A stretch of 64,000 nucleotides of DNA from Nitrospinota bacterium (GCA_016208975.1 JACQXA010000004.1:681015-745014), one strand, 5' to 3'; positions 1,435-56,346 are shown, counted from the stretch's first letter. Translations and numbers: made by a program. The notes: generated from the letters alone by a model not told the origin.

Positions 1435-3663
1435 TCAGAGCTTTTTCCTGGCGTAGGCTGGTTGTTCGCCGCCCAGGATGTCCCCGATACCCAGAAGAGT
1501 TATGGTAAACATTATCCTCCTTTCGTCCTCGGTGTAGGAAGAGCCGTCGGCGGCGGTCTTGGTAAGCTGGCGCTGGTCCAGGTTGATGGCCAGCCCCCAG
1601 CAATCTTCCCGGAACCGGGCGCGCACAAGGCTGTTGGTGGTCTTGGCGTTGGCCTCGTCGTACACCCAGGAGAAATCCAGCGACAGATTCCATGGAAGTT
1701 TTACCTCCAGATAAGCGGTGTCCCAGGTGGAGTCCTGCCCATCCTTGCCGCCCCATTTGTAAATCCTGTCAAGAGCGATATTGGCCACGTCCCAAAGCTT
1801 CAATCCAGCTTCAAGCGTGGAAGTTTCCCAGAACTTGTCATAATGGTTGTAGGTTGTGCTGTAATTGAAAAGAAGCCAATCCGCCGGGCGTGAGCGGAAC
1901 TCCAGCTGTAATGGGGCCAGCGGCCTTTTTTCGGTTTCCGGGCTTTCCGTCCTGTTGCTTTCGATAATGTCGAACGGCTGGGTGGCCACGAACCGGGCCA
2001 GGCTTACAGTTCTGCTGGATTCAGGCGATAAAACATCTTTTGCCAAAAGGTCGTTGGCTATTTGCAGGGCTACCGCGTTTGTGGGCGGGGCGCTGTCCAC
2101 AGTGTCTATCACATACACATTCTGCCGGTTTTCGCCGTCCATCTCATAACCGGGGATATAGTTCCACACCAGCTTCGGTGTGATGACGTGCTTTAATGCC
2201 GGGCGTTCGGGGGTTCCCGTTTCGAATATCCTGAAAAACTTCGGGCCGGTGACGGTGAAGGACGTCTGGTAATACTGGCGGGTGAAGCTTTCGTCCACCG
2301 GGTTTCCGGATGTGTCCTGCCCCCGGGAATACCATGTGGCCCGATACCATGCCGCCGCCTCCAGTGACAAAAACGGCGATATGGAAATCGGCATGCTTAT
2401 GGACGGGTAGAAATCGGCCCTCTCCACGTCAAAGGTGGTCCTGTATTCATCCAGCCCGTTCTCCGTGCGAAACCCGGTGTAGCTGGATTCCAGCGACCAG
2501 TATAACGGCGTCCCCTTTATGCTTTCTTTCTGGTTTATCAACCGCAACTCCGGGGTTTTTCTCAAGGTCTGGGCGTTGGAAGGGTCTAACGCTATCTGCT
2601 CCCTGGCCATGAGCGTCACCGTGCGGGTGGGCCATGACCTGGAGAATGTCACGTAACTGTCGTTATAGTTTCTGGAGCGGTCGGTGAGACTTTCGGAATA
2701 CTGCCTGCTTATGCTCTCCTCGCTCTCCTTGTTTATATGGAACACGTTCCTGATATTCCAGGGAAGGTTGTGGCGGTGGTCAAAAAGGACTCTCCACAGG
2801 TTCCTGTCGGTGGGCTGGTCCGGATCCGTCTCCTGAATGTATTCCCCGTTGAACTGCCCGGAAAAATCCCTGAAGATGTACCTGTATTCCGCCCCGTACT
2901 TGTTCCCCGCCTCACCCAGGTAATGATGGGTCAAAGTGGCGTCCATGTTGTCGGCGATGGCCCAGAAGAATTTGTTCTCCACCTGGAAACCCAGATTGTC
3001 CGAATAAGCCGGAGCGGGCATTAAAAATCCCGTCGCGCGCTTGTTTTTCACCGGAACCGGCAAGTAGGGCAAATAAAATACAGGGACACCGGCGGCATGG
3101 AACACCGGGTTGGTCAAATGGGCGTATCCGTCCACGGTGACATCCGCGTAGCTGGACTCTATCTCCCACTGTGGATCCTCACATTTGCAGGTTGTAAGCC
3201 CCGCTTCCCTGGCCACGTACCTGTCTTCCTCCACGCGCTGTATCTTCGCCCCGCGCAGGTTGTAGAGGTTGTCGAACTTTCCGCTGGCGCGATAGAGCGT
3301 GCCAAGCCCTGTTATGGTGTTAAAATCCGCCCGCTCCGCCTCCAGCCGGCTTTTCGGGTCCTGATACACCGCGGAGCCTTCCACCCTGCCGTCGCCGGTG
3401 TCCGGATTGTAAAAAATCACGTCACCGCTCAAGGTCTTGTCGCCATAAGACACCTGGGCGTTATCGTAGGCGGCCGTCTCGCCGGATTGGCTGTCTTTGT
3501 AAATCTGACCCGCGGTTATGGAGACAGGCGGCGCCGAAGGCGCGGACGCGGCTGGCGCCCCGGCGGGCGGCGCCGGTTGGGCGTATGCAATTCCGGCTAC
3601 GGATATGGCCAGCATGGCCGCTATTTGGCCGAAGCGGATTAATTTGAGAATAGTACTGTTCAC
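1435..3663 (-). CDS. lptD: LPS-assembly outer membrane protein LptD
   Basis: ~750 aa; signal peptide (ILKLIRFGQIAAMLAISVAGIAYA), LptD-like segment KRATGFLMPAPAYSDNLGF...AEYRYIF, beta-barrel-like C-terminus. Start set at in-frame GTG 3663; ATG at 3615 or ORF start 3714 are alternatives. Confidence 0.8.
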   Translation of the reverse strand: MNSTILKLIRFGQIAAMLAISVAGIAYAQPAPPAGAPAASAPSAPPVSITAGQIYKDSQSGETAAYDNAQVSYGDKTLSGDVIFYNPDTGDGRVEGSAVYQDPKSRLEAERADFNTITGLGTLYRASGKFDNLYNLRGAKIQRVEEDRYVAREAGLTTCKCEDPQWEIESSYADVTVDGYAHLTNPVFHAAGVPVFYLPYLPVPVKNKRATGFLMPAPAYSDNLGFQVENKFFWAIADNMDATLTHHYLGEAGNKYGAEYRYIFRDFSGQFNGEYIQETDPDQPTDRNLWRVLFDHRHNLPWNIRNVFHINKESEESISRQYSESLTDRSRNYNDSYVTFSRSWPTRTVTLMAREQIALDPSNAQTLRKTPELRLINQKESIKGTPLYWSLESSYTGFRTENGLDEYRTTFDVERADFYPSISMPISISPFLSLEAAAWYRATWYSRGQDTSGNPVDESFTRQYYQTSFTVTGPKFFRIFETGTPERPALKHVITPKLVWNYIPGYEMDGENRQNVYVIDTVDSAPPTNAVALQIANDLLAKDVLSPESSRTVSLARFVATQPFDIIESNRTESPETEKRPLAPLQLEFRSRPADWLLFNYSTTYNHYDKFWETSTLEAGLKLWDVANIALDRIYKWGGKDGQDSTWDTAYLEVKLPWNLSLDFSWVYDEANAKTTNSLVRARFREDCWGLAINLDQRQLTKTAADGSSYTEDERRIMFTITLLGIGDILGGEQPAYARKKL

Positions 3664-3878
3664 GCCCAAAGAATATAAAAAGCCGGGCGGCTTGGGGCGG
3701 CCCGAGAAAACCAATGAGAACCCTTACACGCTGGGGCCGATTCTATAGGCCCGGCGCCATTAAGTCAACGGCGCGGGAATCCTCATCCCGCGCGGGATCC
3801 ACCACCTGAAACTTTGCGGCCTTGCCCGCATGACGGCCCTGTGATAAGAATTTTGGTAAACAACCACGGTTTTTTCAA

Positions 3879-4844
3879 ATGGCCACCTCCGGTAATAGCG
3901 GCGACAAAAAACCATTCGAAGTCCCGCCACCCAGTATAACCTTCGCGGGAATTATCGAATCCGCCCCGGATTTCGTTATCGCCTACATCCTGCTGGTGTT
4001 CTGGATTACCCCCATGGCGGTGTCGCCTCATCTGTCGCCTGTCCGGGTGGAGGCCATAATCACGCTGGAGTTTTTCGCCATCCTCTCCGGCTGGTTCATG
4101 AGTTTCGCATTCATGCTTTTCAATTCTCCGGTTCTTCGATATATCGTCACCGGAATGCTGGCTTACGTTTTTGTTATCGGATTCGGCTCGGATTTCGCGC
4201 GGTTGAGCGGCGAGGCGTGGCCCATCCTTTCATTGCTTGGGCTGATGATAAACAGGGCCACCGCCGCCCTGGCCACAAGGGAGGAGGCCCGGGGAGCGTT
4301 CCTGTTCGCCTGGTCGATCCTTCATTTTTTAATGATGATGGGCGCGTTCATGATACAGGCGCCGTTTCCAATCCCCGATTTGGGGCTGACACCGGAGGCG
4401 GTGAAGGAAATGGCGCTGGTAAATCCGCCGCTGACGGCCCATGCGGCCGAGAGCATGGCCCATCCGGATAAATACATGGCATGGACGTTCTTATATTTCG
4501 CCATATCCGGCGCCGTAACCCTGTTTTACCTTGGCGGATTGAAGGAGCGAGTAGAGACTCACATGGGCGATCCCGCCAGGAACGTCTCCACGGACGGGGA
4601 AAAGCTGTGGACTTTCGGCCAGCAACTGGCGGCGGTGGTGATATTGACGATAGCCTTGATCTGGATGTTCGATCCGTTAAGCCAGCCTCGAAAAGCATCC
4701 AGGTCCGAAGAGGCTCCATGGCGCGCAGAGGAAGCCTTAAAGCTTCATCAAGACAACCTGGAAAGGATCGGGAAGGAATCCGCCACACGTGAACGACGCG
4801 CCTTGGAAAAAGCCCAACGCAATAGACAGAGACTTGGTTATTAA
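3879..4844 (+). CDS. Hypothetical polytopic membrane protein with charged C-terminal tail
   Basis: Multiple hydrophobic helices in translation; no family recognised. Confidence 0.55.
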   Translation: MATSGNSGDKKPFEVPPPSITFAGIIESAPDFVIAYILLVFWITPMAVSPHLSPVRVEAIITLEFFAILSGWFMSFAFMLFNSPVLRYIVTGMLAYVFVIGFGSDFARLSGEAWPILSLLGLMINRATAALATREEARGAFLFAWSILHFLMMMGAFMIQAPFPIPDLGLTPEAVKEMALVNPPLTAHAAESMAHPDKYMAWTFLYFAISGAVTLFYLGGLKERVETHMGDPARNVSTDGEKLWTFGQQLAAVVILTIALIWMFDPLSQPRKASRSEEAPWRAEEALKLHQDNLERIGKESATRERRALEKAQRNRQRLGY

Positions 4845-5055: not shown

Positions 5056-5132
<77 letters not shown>

Positions 5133-5481
5133 AAAATCCAACCTCATCTTTTGAAACTCCCTAAAAGCTTTTCTAGGCCTCCCTTCCTCCATTTATCATC
5201 TCTTGTCTTGAACAACTCGCGAAGCTAAATATACTTGGCGCATTTTTCATTTCGCCGCCCTGTTTATGGAGGCAGTCTAAATCCGCGCCAATAAATTTTT
5301 TATCTGCCATCCGTTGTGGTTTGAACAATTACATGCACAGTCCGCATGGCGCAGAATACGCTGTATTTCTTTGTTTATTTAGACATTACCTTCCGTTGCT
5401 GATAGGAGCGCAAATCCATTTCCACACTGGAGGGTTGTCGCGTTTTTACTGCATCTAAACAGGCAGTAAATATACATCTTA

Positions 5482-5680: not shown

Positions 5681-6718
5681 ATGAGAAATTTTCGCTTTGC
5701 GGCGGTATTGATCGCTCTTCTCACGGTAGCCTTGGTTCCCGGCGCAAGCCGCGCCGAGAAACGCGCCTTTGACATGACCATAGAGGATACGAAAATAACC
5801 CTGGTGGAACAGCAGGGGTTCCACACCTTTGCGTTCAATGGACAGGTGCCCGGCCCGCTTTTCCATCTGAAGGAGGGGGACGATGTGTCCGTGAACGTGC
5901 ACAACCTCACAGCCCTTCCGCACACCATCCATTGGCACGGCTTGATCATGAAGAACAACTGGAAGAACGACGGCGTGCCGGGAGTGTCCCAGAACGCCAT
6001 CGAGCCGGGTAAATCCTTCACGTACAAGTTCGTGGCGGAGCCGTCCGGCACCATGTGGTATCACTGCCACGTCAACGTTAACGAGCATGTGGTGATGCGC
6101 GGCATGTGGGGCCCCTTCATCATAGATCCCAAGAAGCCCACCGAGTTGGAGAAGAAAGTCACCAAGGATTACATCCTGATGCTTTCCGACTGGGATTCCA
6201 AATACGCCTTCAAGCCCGGCTATGGCGGCGTGCCGGGGGATGTATACGATTACTTCACCATCAACGGCCGGTCATTCCCCGACACTCAGCCCATCCGCGT
6301 TAAAAAAGGGGATGTCGTAAGGATACGCCTAGTGGGCGCCGGGGAATTCATACACGCAATCCATCCTCATGGACATACATTCAAGGTGGCTTTCAAGGAT
6401 GGCAGGCCGTTGCCCGCGCCATATGAGGCCGACACCCTGATTGTAGGCCCCGGGGAGCGCTACGACATCATAATGGAAGCGAACAATCCCGGCCTCTTCC
6501 CTGTGCACGATCACGTGGATTCCCACACCCTCAACGGCGCAAAACCGATGGGCGGGCTCATGACAGTCATCGAGTATGAGGGAGTATCGGCCAGCGCCGA
6601 CCCGGTCTATGCCTGGAAAGACAAGATCTTCACGCCGGACTTCTATTATGAGGAGTCGCTGAAAAAAGGGCATGGCATGTTCGGCAATTCCTCGATGAAA
6701 GGCCAGGCCATCCAGTGA
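5681..6718 (+). CDS. ncgA: Two-domain multicopper oxidase (NcgA-like), secreted
   Basis: Signal peptide MRNFRFAAVLIALLTVALVPGASRA; copper motifs HWHG, HCHVNVNEHVVM (type-1 site in domain 1), HPHGH, HDH; SD aggag 8 nt before ATG. Confidence 0.85.
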   Translation: MRNFRFAAVLIALLTVALVPGASRAEKRAFDMTIEDTKITLVEQQGFHTFAFNGQVPGPLFHLKEGDDVSVNVHNLTALPHTIHWHGLIMKNNWKNDGVPGVSQNAIEPGKSFTYKFVAEPSGTMWYHCHVNVNEHVVMRGMWGPFIIDPKKPTELEKKVTKDYILMLSDWDSKYAFKPGYGGVPGDVYDYFTINGRSFPDTQPIRVKKGDVVRIRLVGAGEFIHAIHPHGHTFKVAFKDGRPLPAPYEADTLIVGPGERYDIIMEANNPGLFPVHDHVDSHTLNGAKPMGGLMTVIEYEGVSASADPVYAWKDKIFTPDFYYEESLKKGHGMFGNSSMKGQAIQ

Positions 6719-6729
6719 AAACAGGGGGA

Positions 6730-7422
6730 ATGATGGGATTCGCCAAAGTGGCGGCGATCGCCGCTACCACTGTCCTGCTAGGCGGTGTCGCCCATGCGGA
6801 AAGCGGCGAAGATATCCTCAAGAAGGACTGCTCGGGCTGTCACGCCCTTTCAAAGCCCGCCAGCTTCACAGTGGAGAGGGTCGTCAACCGAAAAGGGCCG
6901 GACCTTTATTACGCAGGGGACAAGTTCAACAAGCCGTGGCTTGTTAAATGGCTCCAGAATCCCGGGCGGATTCGCCCGGCCGGAGAATTCTATTTCAATC
7001 ATGTGAAGGCCACGTCCGAAGTGGACACCGTGGATGAAAAGTCCATTCCGTCTCATCCCGGCATGGGGAATGCGGAGGCCGTGGCCGTGGCGGACGCGCT
7101 TTCCGCTCTTTCGGAGCCCGGGCTTGTTGAAAAGGGGGGCTTCCTCAACGAAGAAGTCAACATGACCCTGGCCGGAATGTTTTTCGGAAAGCTTAGGGGC
7201 TGTTCGGCCTGCCACATGGGCAAGCCCGGCGCCGGAGGCAAATCGGGCCCCGAGTTATACACCGCCGCCGACCGGCTTAAGCCGGATTACATATTGGCTT
7301 ACATAAAGGACCCGCAGAAAATTGACCGCTATGTATGGATGCCAAAGCAGGAAATGAGCCCGGCGGACACGCAGAAGCTGGCGGGCTACATTCTCAGGCT
7401 TTCCGCCGGGGAGGCGAAATGA
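6730..7422 (+). CDS. ncgB: Diheme c-type cytochrome (NcgB-like)
   Basis: Signal peptide plus two CxxCH motifs (CSGCH, CSACH); starts 12 nt after the oxidase stop. Confidence 0.8.
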   Translation: MMGFAKVAAIAATTVLLGGVAHAESGEDILKKDCSGCHALSKPASFTVERVVNRKGPDLYYAGDKFNKPWLVKWLQNPGRIRPAGEFYFNHVKATSEVDTVDEKSIPSHPGMGNAEAVAVADALSALSEPGLVEKGGFLNEEVNMTLAGMFFGKLRGCSACHMGKPGAGGKSGPELYTAADRLKPDYILAYIKDPQKIDRYVWMPKQEMSPADTQKLAGYILRLSAGEAK

Positions 7423-7805
7423 CGCAGGGCAGAAAAGGGGTTTGGGGGATGTCCTGCGTAGCGGCTGTGTTCACCGCGGCCCTTGTGGCTCTGGCCTGGC
7501 CGGCTTCCGCGGCGACCAAGAGCGAAACGCTGTACAACGTCTATTGCGTCCAATGCCACGGGGTGACGCGCAACGGCAAAGGGATAAACAGCCCCGCCAT
7601 GGCTATCCAGCCGAGGGATCACACCGACGCCAAGGGAATGAGCGATATCCCTGACAGTCAACTGTTCAAGGCTATCAAGGAAGGAGGGATGGCGGTGAAT
7701 AAATCGTCACTCATGCCCGCATGGGGAGACGTGATGACAGACGAGGAAGTGAATGGGCTTGTCGCGTATCTGCGGCAGGTATGCAAATGTGGACCAACTA
7801 AATAA
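7419..7805 (+). CDS. ncgC: Monoheme c-type cytochrome (NcgC-like)
   Basis: One CxxCH (CVQCH), signal peptide; ATG overlaps upstream stop (ATGA at 7419-7422). Confidence 0.75.
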   Translation: MTQGRKGVWGMSCVAAVFTAALVALAWPASAATKSETLYNVYCVQCHGVTRNGKGINSPAMAIQPRDHTDAKGMSDIPDSQLFKAIKEGGMAVNKSSLMPAWGDVMTDEEVNGLVAYLRQVCKCGPTK

Positions 7806-7818
7806 GGGGAGTATTTTA

Positions 7819-8760
7819 ATGTCTTCGACCAAGTATCTAGGGGTTTTTCTGGGAGGGTTGATTGCGGCCTCCGTGGCGCTTTTCGCGCCGCAGGCTCAGG
7901 CCAAGGTGGTGAAAGTTACCTTCCACGCCACAGAAGTGGACTTGCCTATTGACAACAAGGGCACGCTGTACAAAACATGGACCTTCGACGGAAAGGTTCC
8001 AGGCCCGGTCGTCCGCGTGACCGAGGGGGACACTGTGGAGTTCACCCTGGTCAACGACAAGGCTAACAAGGTGTCCCACTCCATGGATTTCCACGCCGCC
8101 CGCACTAACGTGGTGACTGATTTCGCCTCCATAAAGCCCGGCGAATCCAAAAGCTACACTTTCACCGCTGATTACCCCGGCGTATTCTTCTATCATTGCG
8201 GATCCGACCCGATGATCCAGCATGTGGCCCGCGGCATGTTCGGCGTGATCATCGTCGATCCCAAGGACGCCAAGGCGTTGCCCAAGGCCGACAGGGAGTA
8301 TGTGCTGGTACAGTCGGAACTGTACAACAACCCCGAGGACGTGAACACCATGATGCAGGGAAAGTGGAACAACGTGGTGTTCAACGGCGGCATATTTAAG
8401 TACGACCCCGTGCATGACCCCAACGCCACCAGGTTCCTGGCCGCCAAGCCCGGCGAAAGGGTTCGCATATATTTTGTTAACGCCGGTCCCAACGAGTTCT
8501 CCGCGTTCCACCCCATCGCCGGAATATGGGACAAGGTGTACGCCGGCGGCAACCCCAAAAACGTATCCACCGGCATGCAGACTTTCGTTGTCGGGCCGGG
8601 GGACGGCGCGATCTTCGACCTGATATCTCCGGTTGAGGGCGGCAACGCCATAGTCACCCACTCGCTTAAATCGGCTCTTACCGGCTCAATAGCGGTGGTG
8701 CTGTTTTCTAAGGACGCCGACCCGAAGGCCGGCAAGGGTGAGCAGATTTTGGTCCGCTAG
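7819..8760 (+). CDS. nirK: Copper-containing nitrite reductase NirK-like protein
   Basis: Signal peptide; HSMDFHAA and YHC-x7-H-x4-M (FFYHCGSDPMIQHVARGMFG) matching NirK type-1/type-2 copper ligand blocks; SD aggggag before ATG. Confidence 0.8.
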   Translation: MSSTKYLGVFLGGLIAASVALFAPQAQAKVVKVTFHATEVDLPIDNKGTLYKTWTFDGKVPGPVVRVTEGDTVEFTLVNDKANKVSHSMDFHAARTNVVTDFASIKPGESKSYTFTADYPGVFFYHCGSDPMIQHVARGMFGVIIVDPKDAKALPKADREYVLVQSELYNNPEDVNTMMQGKWNNVVFNGGIFKYDPVHDPNATRFLAAKPGERVRIYFVNAGPNEFSAFHPIAGIWDKVYAGGNPKNVSTGMQTFVVGPGDGAIFDLISPVEGGNAIVTHSLKSALTGSIAVVLFSKDADPKAGKGEQILVR

Positions 8761-8774
8761 CAATTCCCCGTTGT

Positions 8775-8818
8775 GGCGCGGCTCCGGCTTTAACAGGAGC
8801 CGCGCCGCTCATTTATTC
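8775..8818 (+). terminator. Rho-independent terminator after nirK
   Basis: 11 bp perfect stem ggcgcggctcc / ggagccgcgcc followed by a T-rich tract. Confidence 0.55.
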
Positions 8819-8882: not shown

Positions 8883-9146
8883 ATGGCAAGCCAAACCGTA
8901 ATGCGTGTTGTAATGATCGCTATGGCCGCCACCATGGTTGTTACCCACTTCGGGTCTCGCGCCCAGGCCGATGATGGTCACAAACACGCCGGAGCCACGG
9001 CCGTGGCAAAGAAAAAATATTATTGCACGATGGATCCGCAGGTCGTCTCGGACAAGCCGGGTAACTGCCCTGTTTGCGGCATGTATCTTGTGGAGATGAA
9101 AGAACCGGGGGCGCAAGAGGATAAAAAAAAAGTCCGGCCGCAGTAA
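8883..9146 (+). CDS. Exported heavy-metal-binding-domain protein; probably the N-terminal part of a frameshifted cusB
   Basis: Signal peptide then YYCTMDPQV...CPVCGM motif; stops 5 nt before the adaptor ORF just after an A9 run. Confidence 0.6.
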   Translation: MASQTVMRVVMIAMAATMVVTHFGSRAQADDGHKHAGATAVAKKKYYCTMDPQVVSDKPGNCPVCGMYLVEMKEPGAQEDKKKVRPQ

Positions 9147-9151: not shown

Positions 9152-10306
9152 GTGGCCAGGAGCCTATGGGTATGCCCCATGCATCCGAACGTGAAGCAGG
9201 AGGGCAAGGGTAGTTGCCCCATTTGCGGGATGAACCTTGTTGAGAAGAAACCGGCGTCCGCTGGCAAGACGCCCGGCGCCACTGTGGACGCGGGCGCCCT
9301 TCAGCGCCTGGGGGTGAGGCTGGCCACGGCGCAGATGACCCGTCTTGAAAGAAAGATCAAGACCTACGGAATAGCCACCATGGACGAAACATCCATCGTC
9401 ACGGTAAATCCTAAAGTGGACGGCTGGATAAAAAGGCTCAACGCCAACACCGTGGGCAAGAAAATAAGGTCAGGGGATGTACTTTACGAGATATATTCGC
9501 CGGACCTTGTCCAGCGCCAGCGTGAATATATCGAGTTGATGCTCCGGCGCGACCAGCTCTCCGAAAGCATGAAGGATAACATCACGGGTCAAAACGCCGA
9601 GGTGCTGGCAAGCCTGGCGCGGGAACGCTGGCGCGCCAGGGAAAAACTGCTCCTTGCGGATATGGATGAGGAGACGTTAAAGCGGATCGAAGAGAAAAAG
9701 CGCCCCGTGGAGTTCACTCCCGTCCGCGCCCGCCGGGGCGGGGTGGTTACCGCCGTCACGGCGCGGGAGGGCGCCTACGTCACCCCCATGAGCCCGATAG
9801 TCACAATCGTGGATCTGTCCAGCGTATGGGTGGAGGTGCTTCTTTATCGCGACCAGCTCGAATGGGCGCGGGACGGGGCCGAGGCCACGGCCAGCCTGCC
9901 CGGCTCTGGAAAGCCGGTGGCCCAGGGCAAGCTTAGGTTCGTAAATCCCCTGATGGATCCCGCAAGCCAAACCCTGCGCGCAAGGCTGGAAGTTAACGGC
10001 GCCGCAACCGGCTTTACGCCAGGGATGAATGTGGATGTGCGCATAACGGCCGAATCGCGAGTGGCGCTTTGCGTTCCCAGGCCGGCGGTGATCCGGGACG
10101 GGCGCGGAGCGCGGGTTATGGTATCGAGAGGTAATGGGCTGTTCGCGCCGGTGCAAGTCAGAACGGGGGCCACCGACGGGGAAAACATGGAGATACTGGA
10201 GGGCTTGGCCGACGGGGATAGAGTGGCCGTCAACGGCCAGTTTCTGCTGGACTCCGCCGCCTCAATGAACGAGGCCGCCGAGAGGATGGGGCATCCGCAC
10301 AACTGA
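9152..10306 (+). CDS. cusB: CusB-type RND efflux membrane fusion protein with N-terminal metal-binding motif
   Basis: GTG start; VCPMHP...CPICGM motif then HlyD-like adaptor; no signal peptide of its own. Confidence 0.85.
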   Translation: MARSLWVCPMHPNVKQEGKGSCPICGMNLVEKKPASAGKTPGATVDAGALQRLGVRLATAQMTRLERKIKTYGIATMDETSIVTVNPKVDGWIKRLNANTVGKKIRSGDVLYEIYSPDLVQRQREYIELMLRRDQLSESMKDNITGQNAEVLASLARERWRAREKLLLADMDEETLKRIEEKKRPVEFTPVRARRGGVVTAVTAREGAYVTPMSPIVTIVDLSSVWVEVLLYRDQLEWARDGAEATASLPGSGKPVAQGKLRFVNPLMDPASQTLRARLEVNGAATGFTPGMNVDVRITAESRVALCVPRPAVIRDGRGARVMVSRGNGLFAPVQVRTGATDGENMEILEGLADGDRVAVNGQFLLDSAASMNEAAERMGHPHN

Positions 10307-10366: not shown

Positions 10367-13300
10367 ATGATCGAAAAAGTAATAGCCTGGTCGCTGAGGA
10401 ACAGGCCGCTGGTCCTTCTGGGATCGCTTCTGCTGGCGGCGTGGGGCTGGCATTCTTCCCGCCACATGGCGTTGGACGCCATACCTGACCTTTCCGACAC
10501 ACAGGTGATCGTCAAAACCAGCTTCCCCGGCCAAGCCCCCCAGATAGTGGAGGATCAGGTCACCTATCCCCTGGCCACCGCCCTGCTTTCGGCGCCAAGG
10601 TCGGTGGCGGTCCGGGGTTTTTCCATGTTCGGCGAGTCGAACATCTACATAATCTTCGAGGATGGCGTCGACCCCTATTGGGCCAGGGCAAGGGTGAGCG
10701 AATATCTTGGCCAGCTTGCCGGCAGGCTACCGGCCGGGGTGACGCCCTCCTTGGGGCCGGACGCCTCAGGCGTGGGATGGATACTGGAATACGCCATCGT
10801 GGACAGGAACGGCTCCCACAACCCCGATGAGCTTCGGGCCATCCAGGATTTTTATCTGAAGTTCGAGTTGCAAAGTCTTCCGGGGGTGGCGGAGGTGGCC
10901 ACTGTTGGAGGCATGGCGCGGCAGTTCCAGGTTGAAATGGACCCGGACAGGATGACCGCCGCAGGGGTGACGTTGGAAAGCGTGGAAATGGCCATACGGA
11001 ACGCCAACGTTTCAGGCGGCGGCTCTGTCACCGAAATGAGCGGGGCCGAATACATGATCCGCTCCCACGGCCACCTTAAAACATTGGATGATTTCGGGCT
11101 TATATCACTGGGCATAAGCGACTCCGGCTCCCCTATCCTTTTAAAGGACATAGCCAATATACAGACCGGCCCTGAAACGAGGCGTGGCGTGGCGGACCTT
11201 GACGGCGAGGGAGAGGCTACCGGAGGTATAGTGATAATGCGGCCTGGCCAGAACGCCCTGGATATCATCAGCCGTGTCAAGGCTCGGCTTGAGGAGTTGA
11301 AATCCGGCCTGCCGCCGGGGGTGGAGATCGTGATCACCTACGACCGCTCCGGCCTGATCAACAGGGCCATTGACAACCTCACCGGCAAACTGCTGGAAGA
11401 GTCACTGGCGGTGGCGGCCGTGTGCCTGCTGTTTCTTTTCCATCTGCGCTCGTCTCTCGTGGCGGTGGTTACCCTTCCCCTGGGAATTCTTGCCGCCATC
11501 GGCGTGATGCGCCAGCAAGGGGCCCCGGCGGACATCATGTCCCTCGGCGGGATAGCCATCGCCATCGGCGCCATGGTGGACGCCGCAGTGGTGATGATAG
11601 AGAACATGCACAAGAGCATGGAGAAGGCCGCGCCCGGAGAGGACCGATGGGAGATAGTTTACAGAAGCTCGGTTGAAGTGGGGCCAGCGCTTTTTTTCTC
11701 CCTGCTCGTGATAACGGTTTCCTTCCTGCCCGTGTTCACGCTTACGGGCCAGGAGGGAAAGCTGTTCACTCCGCTGGCTTTCACCAAGACTTACGCCATG
11801 GCCGCCAGCGCCGCGCTGGCGATAACGCTCACGCCGGTCCTTATGGGCTATTTTGTCCGGGGCAGGATAGCGCCTGAGTCCGCCAATCCTCTAAACCGCT
11901 TTTTCCAGGCGCTGTACAGGCCAGCTTTGCTTACGTCCCTGAGGCATAAGGGGCGCACCATGGCGCTGGCAATGGCGCTCACCATATCGGCCTTGTGGCC
12001 GGCGGCCAGACTCGGTAGCGAGTTTATGCCTTCGTTGTACGAAGGGGATCTGCTCTACATGCCCACAACCCTTCCGGGCGTGTCGGTGGACGAGGCGGCC
12101 AGGATCACACAAATCACCGACAGGATCATCAAGACCATGCCGGAGGTGGAGCGGGTGTTCGGCAAGGCGGGCAGGGCGGAAACCGCCACGGATCCCGCGC
12201 CTCTTTCCATGCTGGAAACCACCATACTCTTAAAGCCCCAGAGCCAATGGCCCGCGGGCGAAAGCATAGACGACCTTGTGCGCAAGCTGGACGCGGCCGT
12301 TTCCCTCCCCGGCCTTATAAACTCCTGGGGATATCCCATTCGCACGAGGATTGACATGCTCTCCACGGGGATTAAGACTCCCCTGGGGGTGAAAATAACC
12401 GGGCCGGACTCCCAAGGAGTGGCGGATTTGGCCAGCGAGATCGAAATGGTCATCAAGAATGTGAGGGGAACGCGGAACGTGTTCGCCGACCGCGCCGCCA
12501 GCGGCAGGTACATAGACGTGGTTATGGACCGGGCCGAGTCGGCCAGATACGGTGTCAGCGCCGCGGACATTAAGAGGCTTATGGAAAACGCCATAGGCGG
12601 GGAGACCATAGGCTATGTGATAGACGGGCGGCAACGGTTCTCCATCGCCATGAGGGTTCCGCGCTCGTTCCGCGAATCCCCGGAGGCAATAGGCGCCACG
12701 CGCATCTCTACGCCGATGGGAGCGCAGATCCCTCTGAGCCACGTGGCCAGGGTTGAAATCTCCAACGGCCCGTCAGAGATCAAAAGCGAGAACGGCAGGC
12801 TGGCGGGCTATGTGTACATAGACATGGCGGGAAGGGATTTGGGCGGTTACGCCGGGGAGGCCAGGCTGGCCGTGACCTCGAAGATAAAACTCAAGCCCGG
12901 TTACGCTATCACGTGGTCAGGCCAATACGAGAGCATGGAGCGGGCGCGGGAGCGGCTCTATCTGGCGGTCCCTCTGACGCTGGCGCTGGTGTTCATCCTC
13001 CTTTACATGTATTTCCGAAGCGCCGGGAAGGTGGCGCTTGTGCTGTTAAGTCTTCCCTTCGCGCTGTCCGGCGGGCTGTGGCTGGTGTACCTGCTGGGAT
13101 ACAACCTTTCCGTGGCAGTGGCAGTGGGCTTTATCGCGCTGGCGGGGGTTGCGGCGGAGTTCGGCGTGGTGATGATTCTTTATATAGACAACGCGTTCAG
13201 GGAAGGAAGCGGTGGCGATGTAACTTCGGCGGTGATCCAGGGTGCGCTGGCCAGGATACGGCCCAAGATGATGACCGTTACGGTGATAGTGGCAGGCCTT

Positions 13301-13453
13301 CTTCCCGTAATGTTCTCGAGCGGGGCAGGGTCCGACGTGATGAAGCGGGTGGCGGCTCCGCTGGTGGGGGGCATGCTCACCGCGCCGCTACTGTCGTTGT
13401 TCGTCATTCCTGCGCTCTACGCCATATTCATCCGGGGAAAGGGCGATAAGTAG
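10367..13453 (+). CDS. cusA: CusA/CzcA-family heavy-metal efflux RND transporter
   Basis: 1028 aa, 12-TM RND topology, N-terminus MIEKVIAWSLRNRPLVLL... typical of the HME-RND family. Confidence 0.9.
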   Translation: MIEKVIAWSLRNRPLVLLGSLLLAAWGWHSSRHMALDAIPDLSDTQVIVKTSFPGQAPQIVEDQVTYPLATALLSAPRSVAVRGFSMFGESNIYIIFEDGVDPYWARARVSEYLGQLAGRLPAGVTPSLGPDASGVGWILEYAIVDRNGSHNPDELRAIQDFYLKFELQSLPGVAEVATVGGMARQFQVEMDPDRMTAAGVTLESVEMAIRNANVSGGGSVTEMSGAEYMIRSHGHLKTLDDFGLISLGISDSGSPILLKDIANIQTGPETRRGVADLDGEGEATGGIVIMRPGQNALDIISRVKARLEELKSGLPPGVEIVITYDRSGLINRAIDNLTGKLLEESLAVAAVCLLFLFHLRSSLVAVVTLPLGILAAIGVMRQQGAPADIMSLGGIAIAIGAMVDAAVVMIENMHKSMEKAAPGEDRWEIVYRSSVEVGPALFFSLLVITVSFLPVFTLTGQEGKLFTPLAFTKTYAMAASAALAITLTPVLMGYFVRGRIAPESANPLNRFFQALYRPALLTSLRHKGRTMALAMALTISALWPAARLGSEFMPSLYEGDLLYMPTTLPGVSVDEAARITQITDRIIKTMPEVERVFGKAGRAETATDPAPLSMLETTILLKPQSQWPAGESIDDLVRKLDAAVSLPGLINSWGYPIRTRIDMLSTGIKTPLGVKITGPDSQGVADLASEIEMVIKNVRGTRNVFADRAASGRYIDVVMDRAESARYGVSAADIKRLMENAIGGETIGYVIDGRQRFSIAMRVPRSFRESPEAIGATRISTPMGAQIPLSHVARVEISNGPSEIKSENGRLAGYVYIDMAGRDLGGYAGEARLAVTSKIKLKPGYAITWSGQYESMERARERLYLAVPLTLALVFILLYMYFRSAGKVALVLLSLPFALSGGLWLVYLLGYNLSVAVAVGFIALAGVAAEFGVVMILYIDNAFREGSGGDVTSAVIQGALARIRPKMMTVTVIVAGLLPVMFSSGAGSDVMKRVAAPLVGGMLTAPLLSLFVIPALYAIFIRGKGDK

Positions 13454-13823: not shown

Positions 13824-15107
13824 TCACGCATGCCCCTCCTGGCCGTTTCCAATCTTGTACGGCAACCCGTTTTTGACGCCATTCTTCACGCCGTTTTTCT
13901 GTCCGTTCACCGTTTGGGCGCCAGATGAGCCGTTTATGGGCAACGTTACGGTAAATGCGCTTCCCTTCCCCTGTTCGCTTGATGACAATGTAACATCGCC
14001 TCCGTGGACGTTGGCTATCATCTTGGCCAGCGCCAGGCCGTGCCCCATGCCGCTGTATTTTCTCGCCAGGTTCTCCTCTATCTGCCGGAACCTGTCGAAT
14101 ATCCATTCCTTAACATGGTCTGGGATGCCGATCCCCTCGTCAATCACGTCCACAATCACAAACCCGGCCGGGTTATCAACCCTGGCCCTTACGATGATTC
14201 TCGATCCTGGTGGGGAGAACTTCATGGCGTTAGCCACCAGATGGAAGAAGAGAACTTCCAGTTTCTGATGATCCCCTACTATCTTCGGCTCCGGTTCCGG
14301 CAGAACCACATCCCACTTCCGGTTGTGTTCCGGAAACTCCATCTGCGCCTTCTTAACAGCCTCGCTGATGAGGTCGTTAAGCCAAACGTAGTGGCTATAC
14401 AATTTTGCGTTACCGGTGGCCAGTTTGGACATAAGCAGTATCTCCTCCACCATCCTCAATAGTGAGGAGCCGGCTTTCTGAATGAGTCCAGCCAGTTCCG
14501 GGGCTTTTTCCGCCGGAGCGGTGCCGTTGGCGATAAGCCTGGAAAAACCCAGAACCACCGTCAGCGGCGTGCGAAGCTCGTGGCTTATGTTGCTGAGGAA
14601 CTGCTCTTTTAACCTGGCCGAGGCTTCCGACCGCGCCTTTTCCTCCTTTAACTGGTCAATCGCGCTCTCCAGTTCCCGCATCTGTTCCTGAATCTTGCTG
14701 GCGGTCAGGTCCTGGTAAAGTTCCGCGAAATGGTTTTTCGCGTAATTGACAGCTTCGAAAACAAGGTTGAGCATCTTCGGTTGGTCGGAATGGGGGGCCA
14801 GGCTGAATATCCTTTGCGCCGCAACGCCCCGGAAAACCTCCAGCCCGTATTGCACCGCGCTAAGCGGAAAACCGTGAGCCAGCCGTTTGGCGGCTATGAA
14901 TCCGATGAAATCGTCCAGATGGGCGCGGTCGCCGTCTCTGATGAAACGCAGGTAGCCGTTGAAGGCGGAGGATACGGTGCCTAGAAGCTCGTCGTGGCTC
15001 CTGTCGGCGTACACCTGGTGCTTCCTGACATGCGCTATCCACTCGCCGATTATGCTTTCTTTCCCGCTGGAAAGGATGTGGCCTATATTTTCCCTGGCTT
15101 TTTGCAT
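13824..15107 (-). CDS. Sensor histidine kinase, apparently cytoplasmic
   Basis: H-box SHELRTPL, HATPase motifs (GSAFTVTLP); no hydrophobic TM segments; C-terminal NG(V/Q)K repeats. Confidence 0.85.
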   Translation of the reverse strand: MQKARENIGHILSSGKESIIGEWIAHVRKHQVYADRSHDELLGTVSSAFNGYLRFIRDGDRAHLDDFIGFIAAKRLAHGFPLSAVQYGLEVFRGVAAQRIFSLAPHSDQPKMLNLVFEAVNYAKNHFAELYQDLTASKIQEQMRELESAIDQLKEEKARSEASARLKEQFLSNISHELRTPLTVVLGFSRLIANGTAPAEKAPELAGLIQKAGSSLLRMVEEILLMSKLATGNAKLYSHYVWLNDLISEAVKKAQMEFPEHNRKWDVVLPEPEPKIVGDHQKLEVLFFHLVANAMKFSPPGSRIIVRARVDNPAGFVIVDVIDEGIGIPDHVKEWIFDRFRQIEENLARKYSGMGHGLALAKMIANVHGGDVTLSSSEQGKGSAFTVTLPINGSSGAQTVNGQKNGVKNGVKNGLPYKIGNGQEGHA

Positions 15108-15124
15108 CCCATATTGGCGTTACT

Positions 15125-15841
15125 TCATGCCCCCCTGCTTTCCACTATCCAGCGCGCTTTAGTAGAATCCAATATGGAGCGCTGGCATACCCTCACAACC
15201 TCCTCAAGGTCGTCTGTGATGGTAAGCGCGTCCATGTCCTCCTGCTTTATGTAACGGCGGTCCATGGGGCTGTTCCTGAGCCAGTCCAGCAGACCTTGCC
15301 AGAAATCCCGCCCCACCAGGATAACCGGAAAAGGAAGCGTCCGCTTGGTGCGGATGAGGGTTAGCGCCTCGAACAGCTCGTCCAATGTGCCGAACCCGCC
15401 GGGAAAAATGACGAAGGCCTGGGAATATTTCACCAGCATCACCTTCCGCACAAAGAAATGGCGCACCTTTATTTTGGGGTCGGTATAAGGGTTGCCCTCC
15501 TGCTCCAAAGGCAGGTCTATCTCCACACCGATGGACTTGCCGCCACTCTCCATGGCGCCCTTGTTGGCTCCTTCCATGATGCCCGGCCCGCCGCCGGTTA
15601 TCACGGCTATGCCAGCCTCGGAAAGCTTCTTTCCCAACTGGTCGGCCATCGTGTAATAAACGTCGTCCTCCGCGGCTTTGGCCGAGCCGAACACCGACAC
15701 CATGGGCTCCTGGCGGGAGAGCAGGTCGAACCCCTCCACAAACTCGGACATGATGCGGAAGAGACGCCACGAGTCCCCAACCTTCATCTCGTCGAGGACG
15801 TACTGGTAATTCCGGACGAAATCGTCTCTATCTTTCATCAT
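15125..15841 (-). CDS. LOG-family (TIGR00730) nucleotide hydrolase
   Basis: GGGPGIMEG and PGGFGTLDE motifs; start chosen at MMKDRDD rather than the longer ORF. Confidence 0.8.
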   Translation of the reverse strand: MMKDRDDFVRNYQYVLDEMKVGDSWRLFRIMSEFVEGFDLLSRQEPMVSVFGSAKAAEDDVYYTMADQLGKKLSEAGIAVITGGGPGIMEGANKGAMESGGKSIGVEIDLPLEQEGNPYTDPKIKVRHFFVRKVMLVKYSQAFVIFPGGFGTLDELFEALTLIRTKRTLPFPVILVGRDFWQGLLDWLRNSPMDRRYIKQEDMDALTITDDLEEVVRVCQRSILDSTKARWIVESRGA

Positions 15842-15966
15842 ATCCAGAACCGGTAATAAAGTGTCTTGCGCGATTTTAAATTTAAGCCGCCACGCCGGCC
15901 CAAAATGCAATTTTGCCCCTCGCGGGCGCGGTTTGCAAATGGAATCGCATGCGCGCCGGGCGGAAC

Positions 15967-18900
15967 TCAGCCTTGGGCGTGATCCTTCCCGTCGTGGGTA
16001 AGCGACACCCCGTAAAACCGGGACATCCACGAGTCCAGCAGGGAATAAAGCGCGGGCACCACCACCAACGTAAGTATAGTGGCGAAACCCATCCCGAACA
16101 CTATGGCGTCGGCCATGGGACCCCAGAACTCCGTGGAGTCCGACCCCATGGCGAACTTCATCTTGTTAAAATCGAAGCTTATCCCCAGTGACATGGGAAC
16201 CACGCCAAGGATGGTGGTTATTGCGGTAAGCAGGACGGGCCGGAGCCTGGTGAGCCCGGCGGTGACGATGGCGTCGAACTTGGGCATCCCACGCTCACGG
16301 AGCTTTATGGTGTAGTCCAGCAACACTATGGCGTTGCACACCACCACCCCCGCCAGGCTCACTATGCCTATGCCGGTCATGATGATGCCGAAGGGGCTCA
16401 TGGTTACCAGAAGCCCGATGAGCACGCCGATTATGGACAGCACGACCGAGGTGAGGATTATAGAAGGGGTGACTATGGAGTTAAACTCCAGTATCAGCAC
16501 CAGGGCGATGAGGAACACTGCGGTGAAAAAGGCGTTGGTCAGGAAGGTTTCCGCCTCCTTTTGCTCCTTCTCCTCGCCTGTATAGGATATCTGCACGCCC
16601 TCGGGCAGTTTCACCTTTTCGGCTACGGTTTTTTTCACCGTCTCCAACGTGGCGGCGCTGTTATACCCGGCCGCCACCTGTGCCCCCACGGAAATAACCC
16701 GCTTCTGGTCCAAGTGCATGATGTCCGAATATCCCGATGACGTGTCTATCTTCGTAACGGCGCTCAAGGGTATTTCCTTGCCCTCGTGGCGGATGAAATA
16801 ACTTTTCAGCTTTTCAAACCCGTCGCGCCTGTCCTCGGTGTAACGGACGCGGATGTCGTACTCGTCTTTCCCTTCCCTGTATATGGATGCCTTGGAGCCG
16901 TAGATTGCGGCGCGCACTCCCCCGGCCACATCGGTGGTGTTCAACCCATAGCTTGCGGCCTTCTCCCGGTCTATCTCTATCCTCAGCTCCGGCATGCCCG
17001 CCGAGTAATTGTTCTCCGCGTCCACCACGCCAGGAACCTTGGAGATGACATCCTCCAGCGTATGGCTCACGTCGGCAAGAACGGTGTAATCGTCCCCAAA
17101 CACCTCTATGTTGATGGGGGCCCCCACCGGCGGGCCCATCTGCTCGGCGCTCACCCGCACCCTGGCCCCTACAATCTCCCCGGTGGCGGCGGCGCGGATC
17201 TCGTCTTGTATGAGTTTGGTGGAATGTTCCCGTTCTTCCCGGGGTATGAAATCCACTATCACCCGGGCCTTGTTCCCCGGCCCGGATTCGCCCATCCCGG
17301 AAAAATCGAACACCCCGGCGGATACGCCCACGTTGGCCACGTATGTCTGCGTCTCTTTATACTTTTTTACTATCGCTTCTATTTTCCGTGTAAGCGCGTC
17401 CGTGGCGTCCACCGTAAAGCCTGTGGGGGCCTCCAGCTCCACAAACGTTTTTCTTGGGTCCGCCGATGGGAAAAACTCCACCCCGTGTCCAGCCACGGAA
17501 TAAACGGCGATGATCATCACCAACGCCCCAAACGACGCCGCCAGGGTCTTGCCACGGTGGTTTAACGCCCATATAAGCGCACGCCGGTATTGGCGCATCA
17601 GCGGCCCCATTTCCTCCTCGGAGCGCTGGGCGTAACTTTTGCTCCTGCTTTTAACGCTAAGCATCGTGGCGCACATGGTGGGATTTATCACCAGCGCCAC
17701 GAAAAGCGACGCCAGCAGGGCGATGATAACTGTGTACGGGATGTACACCATGAACTCGCCCATTATCCCCGGCCAGAAAATGATGGGCAGGAACCCGCAT
17801 ATGGTTGTCATGGTGGAGGTGATGACGGGCACTATCACCTCCCTGGTCCCTTCCAGCGCGGCGGTCTTCGCGTCCGCCCCCTCTTCGGCGTGGCGGAATA
17901 TGTTCTCCACCACCACTATGGCGTCGTCCACCAGCCTGCCCAGCGCGAGGATTATGGAGAAGAGCACCACCATGTTCAGCGTTATGCCGGCCGCTGACAA
18001 CACTCCGAACATGATCAATAGGGAAAACGGGATCGCCAGCGACACGAATACCGCCGCCCGCAGGCCAAGCGAGAAGAAAAGGGTGATAACCACCAGCGTC
18101 ACGCCGGTCACCACGTGGTTGCCCAAGTCGCTTAAGAACGTCTTTGTGTCCTGGCTTTGGTCGGCGGTGTAAACCACCTTGGTAGAGCGGGGAAACGAGC
18201 GCTCCTCCTGAGCCACCAGGGCCTTCACCGCATCGGCCACTTCTATTATGTTCTCGCCGCTCCTCTTCACAACGGATATGCTGATGCACTCCTGCCCGTT
18301 AAGCCGGGCCATTGTGCTTGTTTCCTTGAACCCGAACTTCACCTCCGCCAGGTCCCGCACATATACCGGCTTGTTGTCCACGGACCGGATAACGATATCC
18401 CGTATGATCCGGAAATCCTCAAACTCCCCCGGCAGGCGCACCAGGTACTTGTAGTCACCCAGGGTTATGGATCCGCCGGGGATGGTCACGTTCTCCCTGG
18501 CGATGGCGTCTTCCACGTCTTGCATGGCCAGCCCGTAATAGCGTAGCCGCGCCGGATCCACGTTAACCTGCACCTCGCGCTCCAGCCCCCCGGCCACCCG
18601 CGCCTCCAGCACACCGGGTATCTGCTCTATCTTGTCCTTTAGGTCATCCGCCACTTTCTTGAGCCGGGGCAGGCCATACCCTCCGGACATGTTCACGTAC
18701 AGTATCGGGATGTTGGAGAAACTTATCTCCGTCACCACCGGCTCCTCGGCTTCGGAAGGGATCTCCGAACGGGCCGAGCTCGTCTTATCGCGCACTTTTT
18801 GCAAGGCGGTGTCTATATCCACCGACGGCTCAAACTCCACCGTTATCGCAGAGATGCTCTCCTTGGATGAGGAGCGCATCTCTTTTATGTTCTCTATGCT

Positions 18901-19119
18901 CTTCAGCTCTTTTTCGATTTTCCGGGTCACCAGCGATTCCATGTCCGCCGGGGAAACGCCCGGATACACCGTGGTGACGATAACGAAGGGTATGGTGATG
19001 TCCGGCGAAGATTCCCTGGGCAGGGTGAAAAACGAATTTGTTCCAATGACGGCGATAATAAGAACCATGGCGTAAACCGCCATGTAGTTCTTGATGGAAA
19101 ACTCTGTGATTCTGGTCAC
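15967..19119 (-). CDS. RND multidrug efflux transporter (AcrB/HAE1-like)
   Basis: 1050 aa 12-TM RND permease. Confidence 0.9.
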   Translation of the reverse strand: MTRITEFSIKNYMAVYAMVLIIAVIGTNSFFTLPRESSPDITIPFVIVTTVYPGVSPADMESLVTRKIEKELKSIENIKEMRSSSKESISAITVEFEPSVDIDTALQKVRDKTSSARSEIPSEAEEPVVTEISFSNIPILYVNMSGGYGLPRLKKVADDLKDKIEQIPGVLEARVAGGLEREVQVNVDPARLRYYGLAMQDVEDAIARENVTIPGGSITLGDYKYLVRLPGEFEDFRIIRDIVIRSVDNKPVYVRDLAEVKFGFKETSTMARLNGQECISISVVKRSGENIIEVADAVKALVAQEERSFPRSTKVVYTADQSQDTKTFLSDLGNHVVTGVTLVVITLFFSLGLRAAVFVSLAIPFSLLIMFGVLSAAGITLNMVVLFSIILALGRLVDDAIVVVENIFRHAEEGADAKTAALEGTREVIVPVITSTMTTICGFLPIIFWPGIMGEFMVYIPYTVIIALLASLFVALVINPTMCATMLSVKSRSKSYAQRSEEEMGPLMRQYRRALIWALNHRGKTLAASFGALVMIIAVYSVAGHGVEFFPSADPRKTFVELEAPTGFTVDATDALTRKIEAIVKKYKETQTYVANVGVSAGVFDFSGMGESGPGNKARVIVDFIPREEREHSTKLIQDEIRAAATGEIVGARVRVSAEQMGPPVGAPINIEVFGDDYTVLADVSHTLEDVISKVPGVVDAENNYSAGMPELRIEIDREKAASYGLNTTDVAGGVRAAIYGSKASIYREGKDEYDIRVRYTEDRRDGFEKLKSYFIRHEGKEIPLSAVTKIDTSSGYSDIMHLDQKRVISVGAQVAAGYNSAATLETVKKTVAEKVKLPEGVQISYTGEEKEQKEAETFLTNAFFTAVFLIALVLILEFNSIVTPSIILTSVVLSIIGVLIGLLVTMSPFGIIMTGIGIVSLAGVVVCNAIVLLDYTIKLRERGMPKFDAIVTAGLTRLRPVLLTAITTILGVVPMSLGISFDFNKMKFAMGSDSTEFWGPMADAIVFGMGFATILTLVVVPALYSLLDSWMSRFYGVSLTHDGKDHAQG

Positions 19120-19122
19120 GGT

Positions 19123-20175
19123 TTATTTCCCGGAAATCTCCACGCGGTCGCCGTCCACCAAACTCCGCTGGCCAGATATAACCAGCTCATCCCCGGCCGC
19201 AAGACCGGAGCGCACCAGCGCCAACTCGCCGGAGACATCCTCAATCACAACCCGCCTCTGCCGGGCCGTAACCCCCTTCTCCACCACATACACCGCATGG
19301 CCGTCGGCCAGTTCCACCACGGCGTTCTGCGGGATGATTATGGAATCCGGCCCCAGGCTACGCCCGAAAGTTACCTTGGCGCTCATGTCCGGCAATATCT
19401 TCATATCACCGTTATCCACGGTGACCTCGCAATCGAACACCCGCGTAACAGGGTTCACCGCCGGGGCGATGAAACTTATTTTCCCTTCAAACTCCTTGTC
19501 CGGGAAAGCGTCGAAAGTGACCTTCGCCTTTTTCCCTTCGGAAAAATCCACCATGGATTTTTCCGGCAACCCTACGGAGATTTTTATCGGGTTCACCGCC
19601 ACAAGCCTGGCCAAGGGCTGGCCCGGGGCCACTATGGCGCCCACCTCCACCTCGCGGTTGACCATGGCCCCGGACAGGGGAGCCTTGATGACATGTTTGG
19701 CGAGGTACGCGCTGGCCCCGGCAAGCCGGGCCTCCGCCGCGTCCTGGTTCAGCCTGGCCTGCTCCATCTGAAACTCGGAGACGCCCGCTTTGCGCTCTTC
19801 GAGCGCCTTAAGCTTCCTGTGCTCCAGCGCCGCAAGGTCCCTCGCCGCCTGGGCGGCGGCCACGTCCGCGGCGGCGGTGGAACCGTCCAGCCATAAAAGC
19901 GGCTGGCCCGCTTTCACTCTGGCGCCTTTCTCAAAACCCAGGCGCGCCACCCTTCCCCCGGCCTCGAACGCCAACACCACTTCTTTCCACGCCTTGGCCA
20001 CCCCATTGAGGGTGAGGTCCTGCCTGAACTCGCCCGGCTCGATCTTCGACACTTTGACTTTCACCGTTTTCTTCTCGGCGGCGTTCTGCTGTGGCGGCGC
20101 GGCGGAGCCGGAGCAGGAAACGGCCATGGCCGCCACAGTGAACAGGACAAGGCTAGTTTTGTTTTTTCGCATCAA
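19123..20175 (-). CDS. RND efflux membrane fusion protein (HlyD family), lipoprotein
   Basis: Lipobox AVSC, coiled-coil and beta-barrel adaptor segments; 3 nt before the RND gene. Confidence 0.85.
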   Translation of the reverse strand: MMRKNKTSLVLFTVAAMAVSCSGSAAPPQQNAAEKKTVKVKVSKIEPGEFRQDLTLNGVAKAWKEVVLAFEAGGRVARLGFEKGARVKAGQPLLWLDGSTAAADVAAAQAARDLAALEHRKLKALEERKAGVSEFQMEQARLNQDAAEARLAGASAYLAKHVIKAPLSGAMVNREVEVGAIVAPGQPLARLVAVNPIKISVGLPEKSMVDFSEGKKAKVTFDAFPDKEFEGKISFIAPAVNPVTRVFDCEVTVDNGDMKILPDMSAKVTFGRSLGPDSIIIPQNAVVELADGHAVYVVEKGVTARQRRVVIEDVSGELALVRSGLAAGDELVISGQRSLVDGDRVEISGK

Positions 20176-34626: not shown

Positions 34627-34703
<77 letters not shown>

Positions 34704-34847
34704 GTTCATCCTGGCCGAGCGCAGAAAACCTGTTCATCCCCTCTCAACCAGCCTCTCGCACGGGCCAGCGTGAACAATCTACGCCGGTGGCCGGATCAAA
34801 CATATATAATCCATTTCATCTTCCATTTTTCCCGATGGGGGTATGTT

Positions 34848-44939: not shown

Positions 44940-44974
44940 AGCGCCTTATATACTGTTGCCAGATAGTTTTCACA

Positions 44975-56345: not shown

Positions 56346-56346
56346 C

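Follow-up and report, generated by a model that had tools for sequence, protein, structure and literature searches.

An ncgABC-nirK operon, probably of proteobacterial origin, on the chromosome of an uncultured Nitrospinota bacterium

The genes ncgABC precede the copper nitrite reductase gene nirK in the betaproteobacterial ammonia oxidiser Nitrosomonas europaea, and among nitrite oxidisers ncgABC were restricted to Nitrobacter according to a 2016 survey (PMC5080386). Do four tightly packed genes in a 64,000-nucleotide stretch of DNA from a Nitrospinota bacterium (GCA_016208975.1, JACQXA010000004.1:681015-745014; hereafter the window, with positions counted from its first letter) form such a cluster and, if so, where did it come from and what might it do? 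Very probably, positions 5681-8760 hold an ncgABC-nirK operon that is intact and orthologous to its N. europaea counterpart; it lies on the chromosome of a so far uncultured member of the Nitrospinota, which probably acquired it horizontally from Proteobacteria. Judged by gene order and by all four protein sequences, the locus is an intact member of the known cluster and in itself a well-conserved copy of a known operon; its significance lies in extending the range of ncgABC-nirK to Nitrospinota and in drawing attention to a cluster that is common outside nitrifiers, with an NsrR box ahead of it almost without exception and, in most cases, a Cu(I) efflux pump behind it, a context that offers a lead on the function of NcgA, NcgB and NcgC.

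The four open reading frames (ORFs) are co-directional and tightly packed, with a Shine-Dalgarno-like sequence ahead of each start (Table 1). The end of ncgB overlaps the start of ncgC in an ATGA (7419-7422), ncgC and nirK are separated by 13 nt, and the gap between ncgA and ncgB is 11 nt or 14 nt by the start chosen for ncgB; the start in the table is the gene caller's choice on identical public contigs, and in-frame alternatives are ATG 6730 and GTG 6715. All four ORFs are full length compared to their homologues and keep every metal- and heme-binding motif. The original prediction, made from the sequence alone, had described four co-directional genes with gaps of 11-13 bp or an ATGA overlap that encode a multicopper oxidase of ~345 residues with a type-1 copper site in its first domain, a diheme and then a monoheme cytochrome c, and a NirK-like protein; coordinates and spacing agree with it, its description is accurate in every checkable detail, and its interpretation as an ncgABC-nirK module is supported. 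All four products are predicted to be periplasmic, with Sec-type signal peptides, because the constructs of the related N. europaea structures start where signal-peptide-like N-termini end (residue 1 of the 3G5W construct aligns to NcgA residue 26, right behind a signal-peptide-like ASRA, and the mature N-terminus of 4KNS aligns to NirK residue 29), and the N-termini of NcgB and NcgC are similar.

Table 1. Features of the module and its surroundings, in window coordinates.
Feature	Position	Strand	Remarks
tRNA-Met (CAT)	5056-5132	+	ARAGORN and Rfam; left boundary of the module segment
NsrR-type operator-like site, AAGATGTATATTTACTGCCTGTT	5458-5480	-	201-223 nt upstream of the ncgA start; abuts a TTGACC hexamer
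ncgA, two-domain multicopper oxidase	5681-6718	+	345 aa; Pfam and 3G5W match
ncgB, diheme cytochrome c	6733-7422	+	229 aa; two CxxCH
ncgC, monoheme class-I cytochrome c	7419-7805	+	128 aa; one CxxCH
nirK, copper nitrite reductase, Nitrosomonas-type clade	7819-8760	+	313 aa; 4KNS match
Perfect 13-bp G+C-rich hairpin, then GCTCATTTATT	8773-8808	+	13 nt past the nirK stop; ViennaRNA; terminator-like
Small exported heavy-metal-binding-domain (HMBD) protein	8883-9146	+	Pfam PF19335, E=1.5e-11; called as a gene in Logan contigs
cusB-like membrane fusion protein, N-terminal HMBD	9152-10306	+	Pfam HlyD_D23, HMBD
cusA-like heavy-metal RND pump	10367-13453	+	TIGR00914 1184.6 bits, cutoff 701

The fourth protein, which carries cupredoxin/multicopper domains according to Pfam, aligns without gaps over 285 residues with N. 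europaea NirK (4KNS; phmmer, E=2.3e-148) and is 71% identical to it over 304 residues by tblastn. Residues H87, D90, H92, H126, C127, H135, M140, H231 and H281 are identical in 4KNS and do not vary among 12 aligned members of the clade; following established knowledge of NirK, we take H87, C127, H135 and M140 to be the type-1 copper ligands, H92, H126 and H281 to be the type-2 ligands, and D90 and H231 to be the catalytic residues. The two motifs that had suggested a NirK, HSMDFHAA and YHC-x7-H-x4-M, fall at residues 87-94 and 125-140, respectively, and HC-x7-H-x4-M is present in 81 of 81 NirK homologues. Compared with the identity to the N. europaea protein, the NirKs of Geobacillus and the classical NirKs match at E=1e-63 to 1e-26 at best, which places the protein in the Nitrosomonas-type clade. 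With classical class I and II NirKs (Achromobacter, Alcaligenes, Neisseria AniA) it shares the two-cupredoxin trimer fold, the type-1 and type-2 ligands and the Asp/His pair, although the similarity is distant (E=1e-26 to 1e-46). These enzymes receive electrons from azurin or pseudoazurin donors, or from fused domains, and to our knowledge they are not encoded alongside NcgABC.

NcgA consists of a Cu-oxidase_3 domain (residues 36-152), which contains HTIHWH at 81-86 and, ahead of H136 and M142, HCH at 128-130, and a Cu-oxidase_2 domain (residues 191-286), with HAIHPH at 225-230 and HDH at 276-278. It matches N. europaea 3G5W over 318 residues (phmmer, E=5.9e-155) and the metagenomic two-domain laccase 2ZWN (E=7e-131), and is 64% identical to the product of the syntenic N. 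europaea gene; its copper motifs all recur unchanged in 3G5W and are found in each of 77 homologues. By its sequence, the protein has the features of a type-C two-domain multicopper oxidase, with a type-1 copper in domain 1 (H81, C129 and H136 plus a methionine) and a predicted inter-subunit trinuclear copper cluster formed by the HxH pairs 84/86, 128/130, 228/230 and 276/278. What the enzyme does is also described as unresolved where it is discussed in PMC6967387.

The two cytochromes likewise resemble the N. europaea proteins specifically, rather than cytochromes c at large. NcgB carries its heme motifs at residues 33 (CSGCH) and 157 (CSACH), with two CxxCH motifs in 77 of 77 homologues, and is 54% identical over 224 residues to the syntenic N. 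europaea protein (E=1e-91); its Pfam Cytochrome_CBB3 match is confined to the C-terminal half, and the family is compact and distinct, with 27 representatives (50% clustering) at E<=1e-30 among 1.84 billion proteins. NcgC, a Cytochrome_CBB3 protein (E=1e-12), has its only heme motif at residue 43 (CVQCH), and each of 80 homologues also has one CxxCH motif; over 123 residues it shares 54% identity with its syntenic N. europaea counterpart. A search of solved structures returned no close relative of either protein, only remote class-I cytochrome c matches, the best for NcgC being Kuenenia c-552 (E=2e-6). The likeness of all three upstream proteins to NcgABC is specific, and none of the checks by which the original prediction could have failed went against it.

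Its further proposal, that the gene order is that of the N. europaea cluster, was borne out by a scan of one genome per species, in which 424 species encode a relative of this NirK and the best 80 loci were examined by tblastn with the window proteins. The order NcgA-NcgB-NcgC-NirK was found in every examined locus with enough upstream DNA, including that of N. europaea ATCC 25978 (locus L042; identities of 64%, 54%, 54% and 71%), and the module is common among heterotrophs and sulfur oxidisers such as Thiobacillus, Cupriavidus and Duganella. With N. europaea the window shares the copper and heme motifs, the predicted periplasmic location of all four proteins and, far upstream of ncgA, an NsrR-type box (~-150 in Nitrosomonas) or box-like site (~-200 here); it differs in its host, in the HMBD gene and cusBA that follow nirK, which are absent in Nitrosomonas, and in having no nsrR gene adjoining the operon. 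The nearest sequences outside Nitrospinota are those of loci in Thiobacillus/Hydrogenophilales and other Proteobacteria (e.g. T. denitrificans DSM 12475, locus L011), with identities of 78-82% for NirK, 69-76% for NcgA and 66-73% for CusA and the same seven-gene layout, small HMBD gene included; most of them, unlike the window, pair a divergent upstream Rrf2/NsrR gene with a complete palindrome at -45 to -70, whereas the box here is degenerate and more distant, and the window shows no regulator gene. The Nitrobacter winogradskyi cluster (Nwi2648-2653), where nirK lies with ncgABC genes close to those of N. europaea (PMC5080386), is likened to the window by its published description, Nitrobacter being outside the best 80 loci.

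How did the operon come to lie in a Nitrospinota bacterium? The exact sequences of NirK, RadA (36179-37549) and LptD (1435-3714) occur on one 2,207,735-bp NCBI contig labelled Nitrospinae bacterium, and the best named relatives of both RadA and LptD are from Nitrospinota. RadA is just 57-59% identical to its counterparts in bacteria outside that phylum, whereas NirK is 78-82% identical to those of Thiobacillus-type and other Proteobacteria. A second Nitrospinota metagenome-assembled genome (GCA_016235255.1) contains the same seven genes, with identities of 74-86% for NcgA, NirK and CusA (86% for NirK) and 57% for CusB, next to a different right flank; in neighbor-joining trees of NirK, NcgA, NcgB and CusA, which broadly agree, the two Nitrospinota copies are sisters nested among proteobacterial clades. 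Moreover, two related Nitrospinota contigs (L088 and L089; LptD 51-52% identical) carry LptD, two fumarase genes and a LOG-family gene 78% identical to that of the window within ~2 kb, without the module, and L088 adds a histidine kinase that is 44% identical; in the window, the LOG/kinase pair (13824-16030) is inverted and ~10 kb from LptD, the fumarase genes are absent, and an ORF without a known family, the tRNA-Met and the module lie in between. Because of this contrast in identity, the nested trees and the module-free LptD-LOG arrangement of the relatives, the module was probably acquired horizontally, as a block, from Proteobacteria. Carriage of the module by plasmids was considered and rejected, a tblastn search of PLSDB having given no NcgB match and plasmids carrying only distant NirKs (<40% identity).

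By analogy with the N. europaea enzyme, NirK would form a homotrimer in which one electron enters at the type-1 copper and crosses the C127-H126 bridge to the type-2 copper, held by H92 and H126 and by H281 of the neighbouring subunit, where nitrite would be reduced to nitric oxide (NO) with the aid of D90 and H231. An NcgA trimer, again as in N. europaea, would reduce O2 at the trinuclear cluster, and NcgC and NcgB may link the cytochrome c pool to the two copper enzymes, as the operon structure and the co-transcription that it implies suggest. The operon most likely confers tolerance of nitrite and NO rather than respiratory denitrification, because the genetics of N. europaea, as cited, suggest protection of this kind, with NcgABC offsetting the harm done by NirK alone; where PMC5080386 and PMC6967387 cite these studies, the nitrite tolerance linked to the cluster is NirK-dependent, a genetic phenotype known from N. 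europaea alone.

Is the operon also regulated as in N. europaea? In most related loci a palindrome, AAGATrYAT-N5-ATrYATCTT, lies upstream of ncgA as the single NsrR box, matching at least 16 of 22 positions of the NsrR consensus in 58 of 76 loci, and a gene of the Rrf2 family (PF02082) is found in or beside ~31 of them, mostly just upstream of ncgA. A position weight matrix was derived from 40 unique ncgA-upstream boxes of other genomes, leaving out the window's own site, and run over both strands of the 64 kb; the site upstream of ncgA is the top match at 23.0 bits, compared to 6.4 bits for the next, unrelated one and 20.2-32.9 bits for the training sites, and it agrees with the consensus at 16 of 22 positions (shuffled sequences, <=15). 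NsrR control of the operon is plausible on these grounds, and the analogy suggests that NO or nitrite would relieve repression, as in the N. europaea cluster. Genes that recur near the module in related loci (e.g. L038 12583-14619, L069 12396-13598 and L046 576-2240) include ResB-like cytochrome c biogenesis genes, directly after cusA in 18 loci, as well as NnrS and a homologue of heme-copper oxidase subunit I; together these neighbours point to an NO-related neighbourhood.

Several observations weigh against parts of this picture of a horizontally acquired, NsrR-controlled nitrite reductase operon. Only the half-site nearer ncgA (ATACATCTT, + strand) is a good consensus match within the operator-like site; no Rrf2/nsrR gene was found in the window, and no NsrR-like box in the second Nitrospinota copy, where 324 bp ahead of ncgA were available. 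A sigma-70 scan returned nothing convincing beside the operator or at the start of the operon, promoter and terminator counts not being above the shuffled expectation. As for origin, the module does not differ from the flanking genes in GC content or in GC at third codon positions (GC3), which leaves no compositional sign of recent transfer. Finally, NirK scores 198.2 bits against the NCBIfam nitrite reductase equivalog TIGR02376, under the curated cutoff of 296.3 bits; because the characterised N. europaea NirK also scores below it (197.7 bits; T. denitrificans homologue, 197.4 bits), the cutoff misses the whole Nitrosomonas-type clade, which explains the bland public name 'multicopper oxidase domain-containing protein'. 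Two candidate lines of evidence were discarded: compositional evidence for transfer, GC and GC3 being indistinguishable from the flanks, and a regulatory sequence conserved between the two Nitrospinota copies, whose upstream regions cannot be aligned except for a TTATTGA(C/T)CA block.

Could the main business of the locus be copper rather than nitrite? Downstream of nirK lie the terminator-like hairpin, which a consensus terminator scan did not flag owing to its weak T tract, and then the genes of the small HMBD protein, with counterparts in Thiobacillus loci, and of a CusBA-like pump. The best NCBIfam match of the CusB-like protein is CusB, and it passes TIGR01730; the CusA-like protein, of the CusA/CzcA family, shares 66-73% identity with its counterparts behind nirK in Thiobacillus-type loci. 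No outer-membrane factor gene adjoins cusBA, the only OEP gene of the window being located in a divergent RND operon (15967-21496). That operon, which with its TetR regulator extends over 15967-22125 on the - strand and encodes a pump, an adaptor and an outer-membrane factor, is a second efflux system, ~26% identical to the Cus-type pump.

On one account, the four genes are half of a seven-gene unit for copper and nitrosative stress, together with the HMBD gene and cusBA, in which periplasmic copper handling comes first and nitrite reduction second; as variants, NcgA could be a Cu(I) oxidase, or the pump could load the two cuproenzymes with copper or clear it. Such a unit would fit the presence of cusB/cusA homologues directly downstream of nirK and on the same strand in 65 of the 77 loci with enough downstream DNA, across several phyla, and in both Nitrospinota copies; it would also fit the neighbor-joining tree of CusA, whose agreement with those of NirK and NcgA implies that the seven genes travel together, the score of CusA against the heavy-metal RND model, and the occurrence of HMBD both on the small protein and on CusB. 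Yet the 12 loci without downstream cusBA include all seven Nitrosomonas-type loci, and it is N. europaea that provides the nitrite-tolerance genetics; the operator-like site is of the NO-responsive NsrR type and found only upstream of ncgA, a second box ahead of cusB having been sought between nirK and cusB in 67 loci and rejected as absent from all of them; here a strong hairpin parts nirK from the HMBD gene; and the NcgA sequence lacks the methionine-rich segment that CueO/PcoA-type cuprous oxidases have. Copper handling as the principal role is therefore rather unlikely.

As a tentative proposal, ncgABC-nirK may usually be one half of a conserved, horizontally moving seven-gene unit whose pump serves both copper enzymes, supplying or clearing copper under NO stress. 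If so, this could shed some light on the harm that NirK does in N. europaea when NcgABC are missing, and for many non-nitrifying bacteria it would connect copper homeostasis with nitrosative stress. A limited literature search found no description of the ncgABC-nirK/cusBA linkage, which we treat as unreported rather than new.

A role specific to nitrification is still less probable. In this scenario, NO made by NirK would throttle the terminal oxidase, as proposed for Nitrobacter, or NirK or NcgA would be an NO oxidase. Functions for NirK have been proposed in nitrite oxidisers (PMC3578206), ncgABC of Nitrobacter are strongly induced and tied to NOx fluxes (PMC5080386), which enzyme oxidises NO in ammonia oxidisers is still under discussion (PMC6967387), and the phylum of the host contains Nitrospina; the 64 kb, however, hold no nxr gene and no sign of nitrite oxidation, and the frequency of the module among heterotrophs and sulfur oxidisers implies that it is not specific to nitrification.

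That the module is instead proteobacterial DNA misjoined to a Nitrospinota contig at the tRNA-Met, through an artefact of assembly or binning, is hardly credible: although Logan contigs break within the tRNA, ~577 bp upstream of ncgA, so that the left junction is spanned by the NCBI contig only, an independent 29.6-kb Logan contig ties the module to the histidine kinase, LOG and RND genes of the right flank, the LOG gene there is the one shared with the LptD neighbourhood of related Nitrospinota contigs, the second Nitrospinota genome has the same seven genes, and GC and GC3 match those of the flanking genes.

The breaks concern three independent short-read contigs with the module (L001-L003), which end inside the tRNA-Met at ~5098-5107; contigs of the second copy likewise end 214-325 bp upstream of ncgA. 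These ends could reflect strain variation or a branch of the assembly graph at a conserved tRNA. An integrative island at the tRNA-Met was considered and rejected, since the tRNA 3' end does not recur in the window as an att-like direct repeat (the T-arm of a tRNA-Pro accounts for the one 17-mer in common), no integrase was found near the module, and branching of the assembly graph explains the contig breaks equally well.

Other features of the window lie apart from these questions. Two ORFs of 190 aa (854-1426) and 321 aa (3879-4844) flank LptD and have no Pfam or NCBIfam match; the latter, just before the tRNA-Met, looks from its sequence like a multi-pass membrane protein. The tRNA-Pro (GGG) is immediately followed by a 388-aa ORF without a Pfam family, in a segment of lower GC (34627-35825; 0.52-0.54). 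The GC content of the window is lowest at 46-48 kb (0.485); in and beside this stretch, a gene for a C-5 cytosine DNA methylase (46068-47246) is found next to two ORFs without a Pfam family (183 and 369 aa), and this region (44115-47246) may be a restriction-modification cassette. Finally, two adjoining homologues of NirD/L-like (AhbA/AhbB-type) siroheme decarboxylases on the - strand (55836-56844) suggest an alternative heme pathway or heme d1 biosynthesis.

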